Assembly (NCBI GenBank): GCA_965219415.1
Contig: CBDCNP010000002.1
Location: 4,192,001-4,256,000 of the forward strand
Reading direction: 5' to 3'
DNA length: 64,000 nt
DNA from: Candidatus Marinacidobacterales bacterium
GTDB lineage: Bacteria > Acidobacteriota > Vicinamibacteria > Marinacidobacterales > DATDRI01
Shown: in pieces, positions 5,248-51,853 of the stretch
Layout: the number at the start of each line of letters is the position of its first letter
How positions within the stretch are numbered: the first letter of the stretch is position 1
Translations under genes and position numbers: made by a program
Notes under the pieces: generated by a model
What the model saw: only the letters and a program-made list of their open reading frames with translations
Database searches by the model: none
Told to the model about the DNA's origin: nothing

Positions 5248-6099
5248 TCAAGCGTCGCGATAGTACCTCCTTTCGAATTGGATAGGCGAGCAATAGTCGA
5301 TGGCGGAGTGTCGTCGTCGCGGGTTGTACCAGCCTTCGATGAAATCGAAGGTCGCCATGCGCGCCTCAGCGTGGTAGCGAAACGACCGGCGCTCGATCAG
5401 CTCGCACTCGAGCGTCGCGAAGAAGCTCTCGCACATCGCATTGTCGTAACAGTCCCCGACCGAACCCATCGACGGTCGCACCCCGGCCTCCCGGCATCGC
5501 TGGCCGAACGCTAGTGACGTGTACTGCGTGCCCTGGTCCGAGTGATGGATGACGTCGCCGGGCTTGCGTTGGAACAGCGCCATGTCGAGGGCGCTCAAGA
5601 CGAGCGACGTCCGCAGGTGGGTAGCCATTGCCCATCCGACGATGCGTCGGCTGAAGGCGTCCAGCACGACGGCGAGGAACAAGAAGCCCGACCACGTGGG
5701 CACGTAGGTGATATCGGCGACCCACAGGCGGTCGGGCCGGTCCACCTCGAAATTCCTGTCGACGAGATCGGGGGCGGGACGGGCGTCGTCACAGCGAATC
5801 GTAGTGTGCGCCCTCTTGCGCCGGTGAACACCTTGAATGCCAGCCTCGCGCATCAGCCGCGCTACACGCTTGCGTGAGACGTGGAGCTCGTGTGTCTCTC
5901 GTAGCTCGTGGAGGATCCTCGGCGCGCCGTACGTGCTCCGCGACGCGGTGTGAATCGCCCGGATCTTCTCAAGCAACTCCGCATCCGACACCGCGCGGGC
6001 CGACGGGGCACGCTCAAGCCACGCATAGTAGCCGCTGGCGGAGACGTCCAGCAGTCGGCACATCGTGGCAACCGGTAGTGAATCCTGGTTCGCCCTCAC
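5248..6099 (-). CDS. IS3 OrfB transposase
   Basis: WVADITY, HHSDQGTQY and DNAMCESFF DDE motifs. Confidence 0.93.
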   Translation of the reverse strand: MRANQDSLPVATMCRLLDVSASGYYAWLERAPSARAVSDAELLEKIRAIHTASRSTYGAPRILHELRETHELHVSRKRVARLMREAGIQGVHRRKRAHTTIRCDDARPAPDLVDRNFEVDRPDRLWVADITYVPTWSGFLFLAVVLDAFSRRIVGWAMATHLRTSLVLSALDMALFQRKPGDVIHHSDQGTQYTSLAFGQRCREAGVRPSMGSVGDCYDNAMCESFFATLECELIERRSFRYHAEARMATFDFIEGWYNPRRRHSAIDYCSPIQFERRYYRDA

Positions 6100-6410
6100 G
6101 AATCGGAAGGCTTCGGTGGTACCGACTCGGTCTCCCGAGCGAACCAGGCCGCGGCTTTTGAGAGGATCTCCCGCTCCAACCGTAGTTGACGGTTCTCCCG
6201 TCGCAGGCGGCGGAGCTCCGCACGCTCCTCACTCGTCAGACCGTCCTGCCTGCGACCCTCGTCGAGATCCGCCTGGTTCACCCAGTTCCGGATCGTCTGG
6301 CCCGAGGGCTCAAACTCTCGCGCCAGCTCTTCGGAGCCGCGGCCAGCTCGCACCAGCTCTACCATTTGGCGCCGGAACTCGGCCGCGTATCTGTTTCCCT
6401 GCTTTGACAT
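6096..6410 (-). CDS. IS3 OrfA
   Basis: RYAAEFRRQMVEL HTH plus coiled coil; overlaps orfB at GTGA. Confidence 0.9.
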   Translation of the reverse strand: MSKQGNRYAAEFRRQMVELVRAGRGSEELAREFEPSGQTIRNWVNQADLDEGRRQDGLTSEERAELRRLRRENRQLRLEREILSKAAAWFARETESVPPKPSDS

Positions 6411-6662
6411 CGTGGACTCCTGTCTCCCAAAGGATTAGGTGTCCACGAAAGCGGGTCAAGTCCATAGGCCATAAATCAGCAACTTAGTGTCTGTGTTTGC
6501 GACCGGGCCAAGGGCCGTGGGCTTTACAATCGTCTTGGGCGGGCGGGTCGTCACCATGCAGATGACCACCTAGTCGAGAGCGAATATCGAAGCATGTTCC
6601 TGAAGCGGTTTCCACGCTACGCCGGTCGAGCCCGCCGAGGGGCTACCGTCGCCGGCGACCAT

Positions 6663-7733
6663 CTACGCGGCACGGCAGTAGTAGTTGAGAATGCCCCCAA
6701 GTCGCTCTCGCGACACGATGGGGCCAGCGCTATTCGCGCTTGCCGGCAGAGGAGTGAGGAGCTCGTTGCCGAGACCTTGGTGGTTCCGTTCGGTGTGATA
6801 GTGCACGACGTATTCGCTTACCGCTGTGCGCAGGTGTCGCTCACTGAGAGGTACGAAGCGGTCGAGACACTCTCGACGTATGGAGAGAACGAATCTTTCC
6901 GCGTATGCGTTCAGATTCGGACTATTGGCGGGAAGGCGCAGGGGCTTCACGCCTGAATCTCTCAACAGCCCACGTACCGCCTCGGTGAATAGCGGGTCCC
7001 GGTCGTGGATGAGGTATCGCTTGCCAAGGAGGAAACCATCCCACAGGTCAGTGAGGTTTCTTGCCACCTGCTTCATCCACTCCCCGTTGGGGTCCGACGT
7101 TATCCCACCGATGCACACACAGCGAGTGGCGATATCGATGACAAACAGGACATGGTAGCGGACGAGCCCGAACGGGTTCACAACCTCGACGGTGAACAGG
7201 TCTGTCGCAGCGATGGCGCCCCAATGAGCCTTGATGAAGGTGCTCCACGACATGCTCTTGCCCCGCTCCGGGGCAGGTGCGATACCGTGGTCGGCGAGGA
7301 TCCTCTTGATGGTGTTGCGTCCGAGTTCATGTCCTAGGTTCTTGAGTGCGCCTCGCAGGCGCGTATATCCCCACGTCGGGTTCTCCTGCGCCACGCGCAC
7401 AATGAGCTCACGGATGTCCTTCGCCGTCGGAGGTCGGCCTGGGCTCCGGTTCTTGCTGCCATCGTACTTGGCTGCGATGAGGCAGCGGTACCAACGCACA
7501 AGCGTAGCGGGTGTGGCAACGGACGCAATCTGGGCCAGCGCCTCGCGGCCCAAAGCCTGGGCCTTGACCGCGAGCCTGCGCCGCTCGTCGTCCGAGAGAC
7601 TGAGACGCTTGCCCCGAAGCCCGGCTCGGAGCACACGGTTCTCCTCTTGCTGGTAGTCGATCACACCCTGCTGCTGGCGGTTGACCCAGCCAGCTAGAAC
7701 GAGCAGTAGGAATTGCACGTGGTACGTCATCAT
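6663..7733 (-). CDS. Integrase-core (rve) DDE transposase
   Basis: [46 protein letters not shown]. Confidence 0.9.
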
Positions 7734-7873
7734 GGATCTGAAGATAACACCCTCGGGCCAGACGATTGTAAAGCCTACGGCCCTTGGTCCGGTCGCAAAC
7801 ACAGACACTAAGCTGCTGATTTATGGCCTATTTCAAAAGGGCCGAGTTTTAGCACAGGACGGGGTGCTTCCGC

Positions 7874-8039: not shown

Positions 8040-8285
8040 CCGTTGCTATTACAACTTCGTCCGACCGCACGGAGCTCTGAAGTTCGGACGTGAGATCCGA
8101 ACTCCGGCTATGCAGGCCGGTCTGACCACGCGACGGCTCACCTTTCGAGACATCTTCTTTGCGACGACGATTCCTTTGTGGTTGCGGATCGAGGTTTTCC
8201 TGCTCACTGGGGCGCGCAACCCGGTCTCTTCCACACCTGTACCACTGCCCGCAGCCGCGTAGCAACACTTGATGGCGGAAGCATC
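8040..8285 (+). pseudogene. IS1-like transposase 3' fragment with its terminus
   Basis: YYNFVRPH...RTPAMQAGL followed by CAACACTTGATGGCGGAAGCA; also at 28055-28188 and 48528-49038. Confidence 0.7.
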
Positions 8286-8514
8286 GGGACGGTTTGTGAG
8301 ACCGGGGAACCATACATCGTTTTTCTTTGACAGGAATCTTAGGACATCACCGATTCATGCACCAACACCGTTCTGGCTTGCTAACTTCGTGTAACGCCAC
8401 TAAAATAGTGCCGTTTGAGTTTCGCTCGAAGCTCGAGCACCAACCTCCGGTCGCCCACGCGGTGGGTGCACCGGCTAACGTTGAGTTAGCTTCAAAACGG
8501 AGGAGACTTGAGGA

Positions 8515-27869: not shown

Positions 27870-28208
27870 CCGTCAAGCGTACTCGCTAATCAGATCAAAA
27901 ATATCCGGAAGAAACGTAATCTGACGACGGTCGAGCTTTTCACGCTGGGCGAGCGGGACGGCCCTGAACCATTCGTCTTTGGTCTGGGGAAGGCGGCGCG
28001 AAAGGGATTCGACCATTTCTTCGCTCAGGATTCCGTTCTGTCTTTCGGGAAACTGGTGCTTCCGCCATCAAGTGTTGCTACGCGGCTGCGGGCAGTGGTT
28101 CAGGTGCGGAAGAGACCGGGTTGCGCGCCCCAGTGAGCAGGAAAACCTCGATCCGCAACCACAAAGGAATCGTCGTCGCCAAGAAGATGGGTGCTTCCGC
28201 CATTAAGT

Positions 28209-48361: not shown

Positions 48362-48527
48362 GGTGCTTCCGCCATTAAGTGTTGGTGAGATGACGCTAAG
48401 ACTTTACGGTGCATTAAGTTACAGCCAAAATAGCGCTCGTGACCTTCGCTGCGCGCTAAATAGAGCGTAAGCGACTCTTTTGCAACGGGATACGTCCACA
48501 TCATCAACAGTAAACAGCGCAAGCACC
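48362..48527 (-). repeat. MITE-A copy
   Basis: 166-bp inverted match. Confidence 0.9.
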
Positions 48528-49038
48528 CCAGAAGGTCATCCGTCGCTTCTTTGGGCCAGCGTGCCTCTACGGCCAGGTCCTCAAAACGCGCAGGAACGAT
48601 CGCATCATCAAGGTCGAACGGAGAGCGCTGCACGGAGCCGCGTGGCGATTTGATGACGCGCTCAATAACTCCGAGGACTCCTCGACATTGAACACGTCGT
48701 TCATCGAGCGGTTGAATCTGACCATCCGGCAAAGCTCGGCATACCTTTCGAGACGAACGCTTTCCCACGCTCGCTCGACGGAGAAGCTCGATGAGCACAT
48801 GGAATTGCTCCGTTGCTATTACAACTTCGTCCGACCGCACGGAGCTCTGAAGTTCGGACGTGAGATCCGAACTCCGGCTATGCAAGCCGGTCTCACCACG
48901 CGACGGCTCACCTTTCGAGACATCTTCTTGGCGACGACGATTCCTTTGTGGTCGCGGATCGAGGTTTTCCTGCTCACTGGGGTGCGCAACCCGGTCTCTT
49001 CCGCACCTGTACCACTGCCCCGCAGCCGCGTAGCAACA
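48528..49038 (+). pseudogene. IS1-like transposase 3' half
   Basis: NTSFIERLNLTIRQ...RRTLSHAR...YYNFVRPH. Confidence 0.75.
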
Positions 49039-49139
49039 TATCTGGACTCCTCTAGTCAAGCCCCTTTCTTTCTAGTCACGCCCCTTTCTTAATAAATCTT
49101 CCATCGAAGCTGCGCATCCATCGCGTCGTGACGAGTGGG

Positions 49140-49310
49140 TCAGACTGCAAACGTATCTTCGGCCTCAGTGAGGAGCGTCTTGGGTGCTCCGGGCCATGAT
49201 GGAAAATCCGCGCGCGAGGAGCCAATCACTTTGAACGACCTCTTAGGGCCAGTGTTGCTATTGGCTTGACCCCGCGCCGGTCCGACCGGTACGCCATCAG
49301 TTGGATGGGT
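49140..49310 (-). ncRNA. Putative seek/bridge RNA of the IS1111 element (boundaries approximate)
   Basis: Segments matching the target (49251-49260, 49227-49231) and the donor junction (49196-49204, 49152-49158). Confidence 0.65.
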
Positions 49311-49368
49311 ATCGTCGCAGCCTCTTTTGGAAGGGAAAAAGGAAAACACGAAAGTGGAGCCTCTAAAT

Positions 49369-50400
49369 CTAAGCGGCCACCGGCGACTGGAATTCACTCT
49401 CGCGGGTGGAGACGGCCCAGACGATCCGGGCGAGTTTGTTGGCGACAGCAATCACGGCCTTGTTGTGTCCCCGCGAGCGGTGGACCTTCCGAGCCCAGGC
49501 GCGGAGCTTGTCGGGCGGGCTCTTGCTGACGTTCGCCGCGCGGAGCACGGCGCGCCCGCCCTGGGTGAGGAGCATACGGAGGTAGGAGTCGCCACGCTTG
49601 GTGATGCGTCCGAGGCGGCGAATGTCGCCACTGGAGTTTTCCTTGGGAACTAGGCCGAGGTAGCTCGAGAAGCGGCGCCCCGATGGGAAGCGGCGAAGAT
49701 CGCCGACGAAGCCCACGATGGCGGTCGCGGCCAGAAGTCCGATGCCGGGAATGGCGAGAAGTCGTTGGACTTCAGGAAGCTGCTTGGTGAGCGCCTTGAG
49801 CTCGTGCTCGATGCTAGCGCACTTGTCCTTGAGTTCTCGAATCTCGGAGCAGGCATCACGGAGATGCGAACGGAGCACGTCGGGCAAATCAGAATCAGCG
49901 TCTTCGACGAGTTCGAAGAGGGCGGGCACGACGAAGTGAGCGCCCTTTGGGATGATGAATCCGAGTTCGCGCAGGAGCCCGCGTACGGCATTGATGCGTG
50001 CGGTCCGTGTGGAGAGCCATCCTGAGCGCAGGCGATGGAGCGCAGCGAGGGTGTGCTGGTGCACGGACTTGATGGGTACGGGAAGAAGCTCCTCGTTCCT
50101 GTAGGCCTCGAGCAACGCCTTCGTGTCGGCGCGGTCGTTCTTGCTCCCGCGTCGATACGGCCTCACGAGGTGAGGTGGGAGCAGGACGACGTCGTGTCCC
50201 AACCTTCGGAACGTCCTTGCCCAGAAGTGAGCCGAGCCGCAGGCTTCGAGAAGCACGGTGGCAGCGCTCTGTTTGGCAAAGAACGACACCAATTTGGGTC
50301 GACTCACACGGAGTTGCTTGGACACCTTCCCCGCTTCTCCCGAGATGGCAATCTCGAAGACGTTCTTTGCAAGATCCACAGCGATTGTCGTATCTTTCAT
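49369..50400 (-). CDS. IS110-family DEDD transposase
   Basis: AVDLAKNVF, LEAC, KNDRAD, IPGIG, YLGLVP..SSG, AVANKLARI. Confidence 0.95.
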   Translation of the reverse strand: MKDTTIAVDLAKNVFEIAISGEAGKVSKQLRVSRPKLVSFFAKQSAATVLLEACGSAHFWARTFRRLGHDVVLLPPHLVRPYRRGSKNDRADTKALLEAYRNEELLPVPIKSVHQHTLAALHRLRSGWLSTRTARINAVRGLLRELGFIIPKGAHFVVPALFELVEDADSDLPDVLRSHLRDACSEIRELKDKCASIEHELKALTKQLPEVQRLLAIPGIGLLAATAIVGFVGDLRRFPSGRRFSSYLGLVPKENSSGDIRRLGRITKRGDSYLRMLLTQGGRAVLRAANVSKSPPDKLRAWARKVHRSRGHNKAVIAVANKLARIVWAVSTRESEFQSPVAA

Positions 50401-50536
50401 TTGGACTCCTCCTTTTCGATGCGTATTCGACTGACTTTGGCACATCGATGCCGTCTATGTCAGTGGAGGAGTCCATTCCATCACTTGATGGCGGAAGCAC
50501 CGCCTCGCGTCCGCGCGGCAGATGCCGGGACCGCAC

Positions 50537-51853
50537 CTAGTAGTGGGAGTCCGCCGTGAGAATCGCCTCAAGCAACACAGCCGTACCGTTCGCCACGTCT
50601 TTCGGCTCAGTGAACTCCTCGGGAGAATGACTGATGCCGTTTACGCTGGGTACGAAGATCATCCCAACCGGAGCAAGAAGAGCGATACTCTGGGCATCGT
50701 GTCCTGCCCCGCTCGACATCGAGAGCGTTGATAGTTCGAGCCTTGCCGCAGCCTCTTGGACGATCTCTTGGAGCGTTTGATCAGTCGGCGTAGCGCGGCT
50801 CACGTAGTACCGGTCGAATGAGATCGTAGTGGCGTTGCGCGCTGCGACGGTTCGACTCTCCCGTTCGATCTCACCAAAGACGCTCTCGATCTTGGCCATC
50901 TCGAGGTCGCGTATCTCGAGGCTGAGCTCGACTCGACCGGACACGACGTTCGGGGCTCCGGGATGAACCTCGAGTTTCCCCACCGTGCCTACCTGACGAC
51001 CGGGCGTCTCGGTAACGACAGCGTTGACGAGCTCGATGAAGCGCCCCGCAGTCAACATTGCGTCTCGTCGTTGATTCATCGGAGTCGTTCCTGCGTGGTT
51101 GGCTAAGCCTTCGACAGTGACGTTCCAGCGGATAATCCCCACGATTCCTTCGACAACGCCGATGTCGATCCCCCGCTGATGGAGGGTCGCACCTTGCTCG
51201 ATGTGGAGTTCCAGGTAGCAGGCGATCGATCCTGGCTTCCGCTGTGCCTCGACGATCCGAGTGGGATCCCCGCCGATATAGGCGATGCCCTCCCCGATCG
51301 TCTTCTCGGTATGCGTAGGAAGCGCTAGCTCTCTGTCTTCGACTTCGCCCGAGAGAGCACGGCTTCCAGTCTTGCCGTTCTCTTCGTTCTGAAACAGGAT
51401 CACCTCAAGGGGATGCCGCGTAAGCCAACCAGCGTCGGACATCGTGTGAACGACCTCGACCGCGGCCATCGACCCGACCTGACCATCGTAGTTTCCACCG
51501 TGAGGTACCGAGTCAATGTGCGAGCCGAAGAGGATTGGGGGCAGGCTCGGCTCCTGCCCGTCACGACGACCGACCACGTTTCCAGCGACGTCGATGCTGA
51601 CGTCGAGCCCAGCCTCCTCCATGGCCGAGATGGCATAGGCTCGTCCCTCACAATCGGCTTCGCTGTAGGCGACTCGGCTGATACCGTCCTCGGCGGTCCG
51701 GCCGAAGCGTGACAGCTCGCTGAGCCGGCGGTTCACGCGATCGCCGTTGATGTTGAGGCGAAGGCGTTCTCTGGGATGTTGGACCGGACGCGGAGAGACG
51801 GGAAGCGAAAGCGCGCAAGCTCCGAGACTCAGTAAGAACTCCCGACGCTCCAT
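50537..51853 (-). CDS. M20 Zn-dependent hydrolase (allantoate amidohydrolase/carbamoylase family), Tat-like leader
   Basis: GSHIDSV..GGNYDG, ELHIEQG, NHAGTTPM, SGAGHDAQ, GISHSPEE. Confidence 0.92.
   Translation of the reverse strand: MERREFLLSLGACALSLPVSPRPVQHPRERLRLNINGDRVNRRLSELSRFGRTAEDGISRVAYSEADCEGRAYAISAMEEAGLDVSIDVAGNVVGRRDGQEPSLPPILFGSHIDSVPHGGNYDGQVGSMAAVEVVHTMSDAGWLTRHPLEVILFQNEENGKTGSRALSGEVEDRELALPTHTEKTIGEGIAYIGGDPTRIVEAQRKPGSIACYLELHIEQGATLHQRGIDIGVVEGIVGIIRWNVTVEGLANHAGTTPMNQRRDAMLTAGRFIELVNAVVTETPGRQVGTVGKLEVHPGAPNVVSGRVELSLEIRDLEMAKIESVFGEIERESRTVAARNATTISFDRYYVSRATPTDQTLQEIVQEAAARLELSTLSMSSGAGHDAQSIALLAPVGMIFVPSVNGISHSPEEFTEPKDVANGTAVLLEAILTADSHY

Follow-up and report, generated by a model that had tools for sequence, protein, structure and literature searches.

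A probable RNA-guided insertion sequence of the IS1111 group with a guide for the end of IS1-like elements in Candidatus Marinacidobacterales

We examined a 64,000-nucleotide stretch of a Candidatus Marinacidobacterales genome (contig CBDCNP010000002.1, positions 4,192,001 to 4,256,000), here called the window and numbered from its own first letter. Within it an insertion sequence (IS) of the IS1111 group, part of the IS110 family, interrupts one terminal inverted repeat (IR) of an IS1-like element. An original prediction, made on the DNA letters, had proposed that a non-coding RNA of this insertion matches the very terminus that it occupies. The features that bear on this proposal are the following.

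49039-50483, minus strand: IS1111-group element, 1445 bp with one copy of the core, junctions set by comparison with the empty site
49369-50400, minus strand: transposase gene, 343 amino acids (aa), ATG at 50400 after GGAGGAG
49137-49297, minus strand: predicted bridge/seekRNA core, 161 nt, made up of an outer stem and two stem-loops, one for target binding and one for donor binding
49043-49052: sub-terminal inverted repeat of the right end, set in by 4 nt, plus strand TGGACTCCTC
50466-50475: sub-terminal inverted repeat of the left end, set in by 6 nt, plus strand GAGGAGTCCA
48362-49038, plus strand: body of the occupied host element, with a TTAAG-type left IR at 48362 and the 3' part of an IS1-like transposase gene from 48688
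50484-50501, plus strand: outer 18 bp of the host terminal inverted repeat, severed by the insertion and followed by unique DNA; these 18 bp, or a one-base variant, are found in 30/30 copies
8260-8288, plus strand: empty target site with a single CA, reading uninterrupted TAGCAACACTTGATGG from 8260
28055-28083, minus strand: second empty target site, a perfect copy, with TAGCAACACTTGATGG at 28065-28080

The anatomy of the element was observed directly. Its core dinucleotide is TG in the orientation of the element and CA on the plus strand, where it stands at 49037-49038, outside the right end, and again at 50482-50483, at the left end. The left junction reads TAGCAACA/TATCTGG (49031-49038/49039; plus strand 49031-49052 is TAGCAACA/TATCTGGACTCCTC) and the right junction ends in TTCCATCA/CTTGATGGCGGAAGCACC (50483/50484-50501; plus strand 50466-50501 is GAGGAGTCCATTCCATCA/CTTGATGGCGGAAGCACC). 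Because the uninterrupted sequence is found at 8260 and at 28065-28080, we can say that a 1445-bp insert splits the site TAGCAA-CA-CTTGATGG, with CA at both junctions. The original prediction had described this split site, its duplicated CA and an intact copy at 8260-8285, and its coordinates are exact; that intact copy differs from the right flank of the element by one base near its end (GCATC versus GCACC). The two sub-terminal repeats are 10 bp long and reverse complements of each other, with extensions of 4 and 6 nt, and fall within the 7-17 bp seen in the IS1111 group. The non-coding region 3' of the transposase gene is long, at 330 nt (49039-49368), as against 81 nt (50401-50481) before the start codon, and insertion is at one sequence, in a single orientation and with no duplication beyond the shared core, both again as in that group.

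The transposase, queried as 49369-50403 (one codon longer than the likely open reading frame, ORF), has the DEDD (RuvC-like) N-terminal and PF02371 C-terminal parts of an IS110-family protein, matching Pfam DEDD_Tnp_IS110 (PF01548; 7.8e-12, 45.7 bits) and Transposase_20 (PF02371; 3.4e-24, 85.5 bits), and scores 302.9 bits on the NCBIfam model NF033542 'IS110 family RNA-guided transposase', for which the cut-off is 140. The C-terminal motif GL-P----S(T)G is described, with other marks of the IS1111 group, in Siddiquee 2024 (PMC11187229), and the marks also in Durrant 2024 (PMC11208160). This motif can be read from the translation as GLVPKENSSG (YLGLVPKENSSG, YLGLVPKENSSGD). The domain matches, the motif, the sub-terminal repeats and the downstream non-coding region together bear out the IS1111 identity that had been predicted. 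The nearest named transposase among plasmid records is of the ISPa25 family, at 45.9% identity, with IS4321 and IS5075 at 33-34%; sequence similarity to the solved IS621 and ISCro4 proteins is limited to the C-terminal half.

The terminus into which the element has inserted is one end of a 1200-bp IS and also one end of a miniature inverted-repeat transposable element (MITE) of about 244 bp. In both hosts the insertion lies 18 bp inside one terminal inverted repeat, and the other end, which reads ...AAGTGTTGG..., is unused by the element. The host IS has a single 392-aa ORF scoring 84.5 bits on the NCBIfam IS1 model NF033558 (cut-off 100) and 21.6 bits on Pfam DDE_Tnp_IS1, below 24.1. Since the NF033558 score lies below its cut-off, 'IS1-like' is the safe wording, and the predicted IS1-like terminus is retained in that form only. 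The occupied host in the window, at 48362-50501, is a truncated hybrid. IS1-like termini in general show a very large expansion, with several sub-families that have their outer 20 bp in common.

Within the 330-nt non-coding region, four segments read as the original prediction had claimed, at the positions that it gave (49260-49251, 49231-49227, 49204-49196 and 49158-49152). We refer to them as T, B, D1 and D2.

49251-49260, minus strand: T guide, UAGCAACACU (DNA TAGCAACACT), 5' side of the target loop
49227-49234, minus strand: B guide, 3' side of the target loop, with AAGUG (49231-49227, DNA AAGTG) in the same sense as AAG-TG
49196-49204, minus strand: D1, UUCCAUCAU (DNA TTCCATCAT), 5' side of the donor loop
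49152-49158, minus strand: D2, AGAUACG, 3' side of the donor loop, running in the sense of the right end (AGATA) and core

In the orientation of the element the target is CCATCAAG-TG-TTGCTA. The T guide is complementary to AG-TG-TTGCTA on the target top strand at 10/10 positions, and the B guide, as UCAA-A-GUG, matches TCAAGTG given one bulged A. On the donor side, the joined ends of a putative circle would read CCAGATA-TG-ATGGAATGG in element orientation, and D1 is complementary to the A-TG-ATGGAA of this right-end/core/left-end junction at 9/9 positions. T pairs with AGTGTTGCTA and lies 5' of B, and their target matches overlap in AGTG, which is the order described for IS1111-type seekRNAs, where a top-strand match stands 5' of a bottom-strand match and the two overlap in the target (Siddiquee 2024, PMC11187229). 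For 93% of IS1111 elements, Durrant 2024 (PMC11208160) predicts that the right end contains a bridge RNA having a target loop and a donor loop. Because the guide order and the right-end location of the RNA fit this published pattern, we read the element as a standard IS1111-type RNA-guided IS. The predicted natural guide-target pair therefore stands, and what does not stand is the idea that its target is a joint peculiar to this mosaic, since it is one specific end of the 1.2-kb IS and of the MITE.

The insertion sites of other copies could be read directly across the genome (8.05 Mb in three contigs), which holds 30 full-length copies at no less than 99.3% identity, plus four fragments; 1445 bp is the length of 25 of the 27 copies that have both exact end anchors. 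When the flanks of all 30 full copies were read, 28 stood directly in TAGCAACA/CTTGATGG in a common orientation, one was separated from TAGCAACA by a 285-bp tandem partial copy, and one occupied the near-cognate site CGCCAACA/CTTGATGG, so that the copies are not scattered over unrelated sequences. At the other end all 30 are flanked by CTTGAT(G/A)GC(G/A)GAAGCACC, beyond which they diverge. Because the right flanks diverge beyond 18 bp in 30/30 cases, these 18 bp can be taken as the tip of the repeated element, with the orientation of the insert constant relative to that tip.

Discrimination against near-cognate repeats was equally open to direct observation. A census of GGTGCTTCCGCCATCAAGTG-like termini, allowing up to three mismatches, found 481 in the genome, 451 of them on the contig C3 and 17 in the window, and their occupancy differed by class.

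TCAAG-TG-TTGCTA (cognate): 79 empty, 29 occupied
TCAAG-TG-TTGG followed by TG, CG, TA, CA or TT (differing only at right-flank positions 4-6): 99 empty, 1 occupied
TTAAG types (left flank differing as well): about 194 empty, 0 occupied

The 12-mer AGCAACACTTGA occurs exactly 83 times in the genome, in all 83 cases in the IR context. Near-identical and 92-98% identical relatives are found in several genomes recorded as Candidatus Marinacidobacterales, mostly in the same IR site, with 30 of 42 distinct left flanks reading CCATCAAG-TG. The 92% class also has insertions outside any IR; all that is kept there is TCAAG-TG-TTGCT, which delimits the recognised bases.

To describe the RNA we aligned its 161-nt region from six lineages: this element, L052 for the 92% class, L050, L127 (an element of genome G041), L069 (46% protein identity; record titled Steroidobacteraceae) and ISPa25. 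Their alignment shows a conserved structure. The RNAalifold consensus has an outer stem, then a stem leading to an internal loop with T on its 5' side and B on its 3' side, capped by a small hairpin, and then a second internal loop, closed by UGGCC/GGCCG, with D1 and D2 on its two sides. After removal of three D1-D2 pairs drawn by RNAalifold (columns 98-100 with 157-159), 33 pairs were counted, 91.9% paired, of which 8 are changed on both sides; none of 500 shuffles reached any of these measures, and slid controls were 34-45% paired. In helix 2, 6 of 8 pairs are changed on both sides. Consensus and pair counts agree in placing the guide matches in internal loops closed by covarying stems, rather than in the stems themselves. 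An RNA model built here, R1, scores 166.7 bits at 49137-49297 and connects this RNA with known ones: it finds the equivalent region 3' of the transposase gene in a Klebsiella IS110-family element (E 4e-10), IS5708 (1.2e-6), IS4321 (2e-4) and IS5075 (7e-4), E-values that are rough after a short calibration. Neither ISShdy1 nor either of two distant Bacillota loci was matched by R1. Single-sequence minimum free energy (MFE) folds do not single the RNA out (z = -2.78 for the whole non-coding region, -0.76 for the 161-nt core). An MFE pairing of D2 with an upstream stretch was not adopted, as the alignment has no need of it.

All four guide segments covary with the flanks or the ends of their own elements, as direct comparison of the lineages showed. 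Exact complementary runs between the T loop and its own target, taken from each element's own flanks, are 10, 9, 10, 9, 9 and 6 in the six lineages, as against runs of 3-6 with most of the other elements' targets, and the loop is best against its own target in five of the six rows. Three relatives are visibly retargeted: L050 has UAACAAU-CG (UAACAAUCGU) in its loop and the flank TG-ATTGTTA, the G041 element has CAACUG-CG (CAACUGCG) and the flank CG-CAGTTG at two different sites, and L069 has AAGGAU-CG (AAGGAUCG) and the flank CG-ATCCTT. The L050 case rests on one site, because its own genome has a single copy of that type. The B loop is weaker, with own-target runs of 5, 5, 3, 5, 9 and 5, the run of 9 nt being GUCUUUGAU at the L069 B position.

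On the donor side, D1 tracks the left end (UUCCAU with ATGGAA, UCCCAU with ATGGGA in the G041 element, UCUCA with TG-AGA in L069) and D2 tracks the right end (AGAUA with CCAGATA, AUAUACG with CCATATA-CG in ISPa25, AUACACG with CCATACA-CG in L069, AUAGAU with CCATAGAT in IS4321/IS5075). The D2 of the 92% class is AGAUAUG, with AGATA-TG. The original prediction had set AGAUACG beside a donor AGATATG; the comparison holds, and its odd letter is ancestral, not a random mismatch, the C matching perfectly the relatives that have CG at the right junction (G041, L069, ISPa25). The resulting core mismatch, which this element has in common with its 98% relatives, has evidently not prevented a recent burst. 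In a related observation, L120, L127, L069 and L136 (three lineages) have TG at the left junction and CG at the right. Junction dinucleotides need not match in this group, which bears on where strands are exchanged.

Taken together, we consider it probable, at about 88%, that this is an active IS1111-group, RNA-guided IS whose guide targets the end of an IS1-like IS or MITE. A recombinase of the DEDD/serine type would be loaded with a bridge/seekRNA transcribed from the 330-nt region 3' of its gene. In the target loop, the 5' side would base-pair with TG-TTGCTA (core and right flank, top strand) and the 3' side with the bottom strand of TCAAG-TG (left flank and core), while the second internal loop would recognise CCAGATA-TG-ATGGAA, the sequence formed where the two ends of the element meet in the excised circle. 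The TG core would then be the point of recombination, and the element would enter the 1.2-kb IS1-like IS or the MITE in a single orientation, 18 bp inside one of its terminal IRs. Expression of the RNA, its binding by the protein, the circular intermediate and a promoter at its junction are suggested solely by homology. The ends joined in silico do give TTGACT, an 18-nt spacer and TGGAAT, a predicted promoter with 9/12 matches.

Several observations weigh against this interpretation. The complementarity in the single sequence is only moderately unlikely to arise by chance: among 2000 mononucleotide shuffles of 300 nt of the non-coding region, 24 gave a run of at least 10 matching the 34-nt site on either strand and 77 a run of at least 9 matching the 32-nt circle junction, and the 5-nt and 7-nt segments (B and D2) taken alone are not above chance. 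The B guide, with an exact run of only 5, or 3 in L050, is weak by itself, and D2 has C where the core of the element has T, a C-opposite-A mismatch at the first core position. The T loop of ISPa25 shows a run of 6 with its own flank (one plasmid copy) and of 9 with the L050 target. The consensus structure was counted on the same small six-sequence alignment from which it came, which flatters it, and the Fisher tests of cognate occupancy (p = 1.3e-8 and 7e-15) are overstated, because sites of one repeat family are not independent. A permissive E-value search of 48800-50700 against Rfam returned no bridge/seekRNA family, only chance hits (mir-1910 etc.). In assembled contigs of four sequencing runs there is no right-end-to-left-end joint, which, for contigs only, proves nothing, and the assembled contigs of the runs that hold the element, again contigs only, show no transcript ends. 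The transposase gene and portions of the non-coding region are touched by RNA-library contigs, in which DNA carry-over is possible. Because shuffles yield such runs in 24 and 77 cases of 2000, we do not rest the case on single-sequence matches; its weight comes from the position of the guides in conserved loops, their covariation with flanks in relatives and the insertion-site census.

Three other explanations were weighed against the same data. That a protein reading the IR sets the site preference, the RNA complementarity being coincidental, would suit the modest single-sequence statistics and an RNA side that rests on sequence, yet we regard it as very improbable: loop and flank change together in four other lineages whose targets are unrelated, while the transposases remain 46-98% identical, and loop-directed targeting has been shown experimentally for family members (Siddiquee 2024, PMC11187229). 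It is also improbable, to a lesser degree, that only the target loop works, as a short seekRNA, the sub-terminal repeats being what the protein reads at the ends, and the matches of D1 and D2 being by-products. An 82-nt short seekRNA is enough for movement of ISEc11 (Siddiquee 2024, PMC11187229), D2 has a mismatch to the core of its own element, and D1 and D2 taken alone match at close to chance level; on the other hand, across five lineages a change of left end goes with a change in D1 and a change of right end (AGATA, ATATA, ATACA, ATAGAT) with a change in D2, the two segments flank one internal loop closed by conserved stems, and donor-complementary loops are described in IS1111 examples (Durrant 2024, PMC11208160).

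The copy number itself could be due to composite spread of host plus passenger by the IS1-like transposase instead of some 30 separate RNA-guided insertions. Such composites still end in the outer 18 bp of the IR, ten copies are in near-identical MITE-plus-element units (1689-1692 bp) and three in units of about 2645 bp, and among 27 occupied hosts the nearest flank belongs to another occupied host in 5, with ties in 7. Against this, the nearest flank is that of an empty host in the remaining 15, and no two occupied flanks are identical over 92 nt (maximum 0.989) although the elements themselves are 99.93-100% identical; these identities are ungapped and indels lower the means, so only maxima and nearest-neighbour counts were used. 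Moreover, at least four different host contexts are occupied, and relatives elsewhere use the same site, together with non-IR sites that have only 12 bp in common. The roughly 30 insertions look independent, and we think it unlikely that composite spread accounts for them as a whole, though some of it may have occurred. RNA-guided insertion into the IS1-like terminus is the reading that we keep.

IS4321 and IS5075 are reported to target the 38-bp IR of Tn21-family transposons (Partridge and Hall 2003). Like them, the present element takes a fixed position and orientation inside the terminal IR of another mobile element and has sub-terminal repeats and an RNA 3' of its gene; AAAACGGAAA and UAUUUU, which match the flanking Tn21-type repeat, lie at the two target-loop positions of R1 in those elements. 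It differs from them in its transposase (identity 33-34%) and in its target, here the end of an IS1-like IS or MITE in an uncultured bacterium. ISPa25, ISKpn4 and ISPst6, the closest by named transposase (45.9%), have the same left end TGATGGAATGGACTCCTCC and an alignable RNA with the same two loops; unlike the element described here, they have integron attC targets, the right end CCATATA, the D2 AUAUACG and CG at the right junction.

In ISEc11 and ISXne4 the stems are kept while loop and target differ among close relatives (Siddiquee 2024, PMC11187229), and the same is seen here between the element and L050 (about 91% nucleotide identity) and between the element and that of G041. Reprogramming was shown by experiment for ISEc11 and ISXne4, whereas here it is read from sequence, with L050 as a single copy. 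IS621 (PMC11208158) likewise has two internal loops that read both strands of target and donor around the core, and a DEDD plus serine recombinase; it differs in that its RNA is upstream of the gene (here downstream), its bottom-strand guide comes first (here the top-strand guide), its core is CT (here TG), and the long sub-terminal repeats are a feature of the present element. ISPpu9 with ssr9 (PMC12288879) resembles the present family in having transposase-less copies of a 3' module beside or apart from full copies; its small RNA is not needed for transposition, whereas here the module is itself the predicted guide RNA.

Such transposase-less partial copies, made up of the guide RNA region and the right end, stand head-to-tail immediately behind full copies at L031, L032, L040, L041, L045, L047 and L048. 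They start at internal TG or CG dinucleotides (TG-ATTGCTG, TG-AATTCC, CG-TGTTTTCC, TG-ATGCG, TG-GTGAC), and a partial copy in this genome outside the window (G000:C3:3315127-3315411) starts at GG-CTGCGAC. They may have come about by self-targeted insertion followed by homologous deletion, or from pseudo-left-end circles as reported for ISPpu9. Solo modules of RNA plus right end, about 90% identical and with no transposase gene, were seen at L112 (G007), L126 and L133 (G040) and L132 (G055); they stand at TG-TTGCTACGCGG and are preceded by another repeat, GGGCCGAGTTTTGGCACAGGACGG.

The guide region itself shows other variants. At L113 (G041:C2:3641309-3641501; R1 37.1 bits) the donor loop is conserved and 89 nt replace the 53-nt target-loop region. 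In one RNA-library contig 49167-49269 is replaced by 99 other letters (49166 joined to 49270), which is probably a relative with a different guide region.

Further observations concern the element's ends and the rest of the window. The right end contains a tandem duplication of about 22 bp (about 49053-49096; TAGTCA-A/C-GCCCCTTTCTT twice) that is present in near-identical copies of the same genome; because the 98% relatives are without it, they measure 1421-1425 bp and this element 1445 bp. At the left end, 11 bp of pairing join the sub-terminal repeat to the Shine-Dalgarno region GGAGGAGUCC, which lies 3 nt before the start codon (50403-50475, minus strand), in a hairpin of -32.9 kcal/mol (z = -4.67, 0/200 shuffles). 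In read-through transcripts this pairing would hide the ribosome site; those from the predicted junction promoter would probably start within the 5' arm and leave it free. Other mobile-element ORFs on the minus strand at 5248-7808 encode 283 aa (5248-6099), with a 104-aa ORF directly upstream, and 381 aa (6663-7808); by eye, the 283-aa and 381-aa ORFs resemble IS3-type and integrase-type transposases.

RNA guidance of IS110 and IS1111 elements was reportedly shown in 2024, and the present element is a clean natural example of that known kind, leaving the known mechanism unchanged. It extends the habit of an IS targeting the end of another mobile element from plasmid Tn21-type transposons to the IS1-like elements and MITEs of an uncultured bacterium rich in ISs. 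We also put forward, as a speculative and rather doubtful view, that the element lives as a hyperparasite on an IS1-like family in expansion, with roughly one cognate copy in four split in one IR, 18 bp from its tip, and that its guide-RNA-plus-right-end module also spreads alone, transposase-less, at right-end junctions that keep the stronger target half. If this were true, the tandem partial modules starting from internal TG or CG would be footprints of guide-only circles or of self-targeted insertions. Because RNA-guided IS110/IS1111 recombinases are in development as genome-writing tools, natural specificity data are useful, and this genome amounts to a ready-made specificity experiment, in which one guide has met 481 sites (about 108 cognate with 29 filled, about 100 with 1 filled and about 194 with none filled), with close relatives providing guides that have been retargeted in nature while scaffold and protein are almost the same. 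Its main value lies in this large natural specificity data set and the retargeted relatives that go with it.

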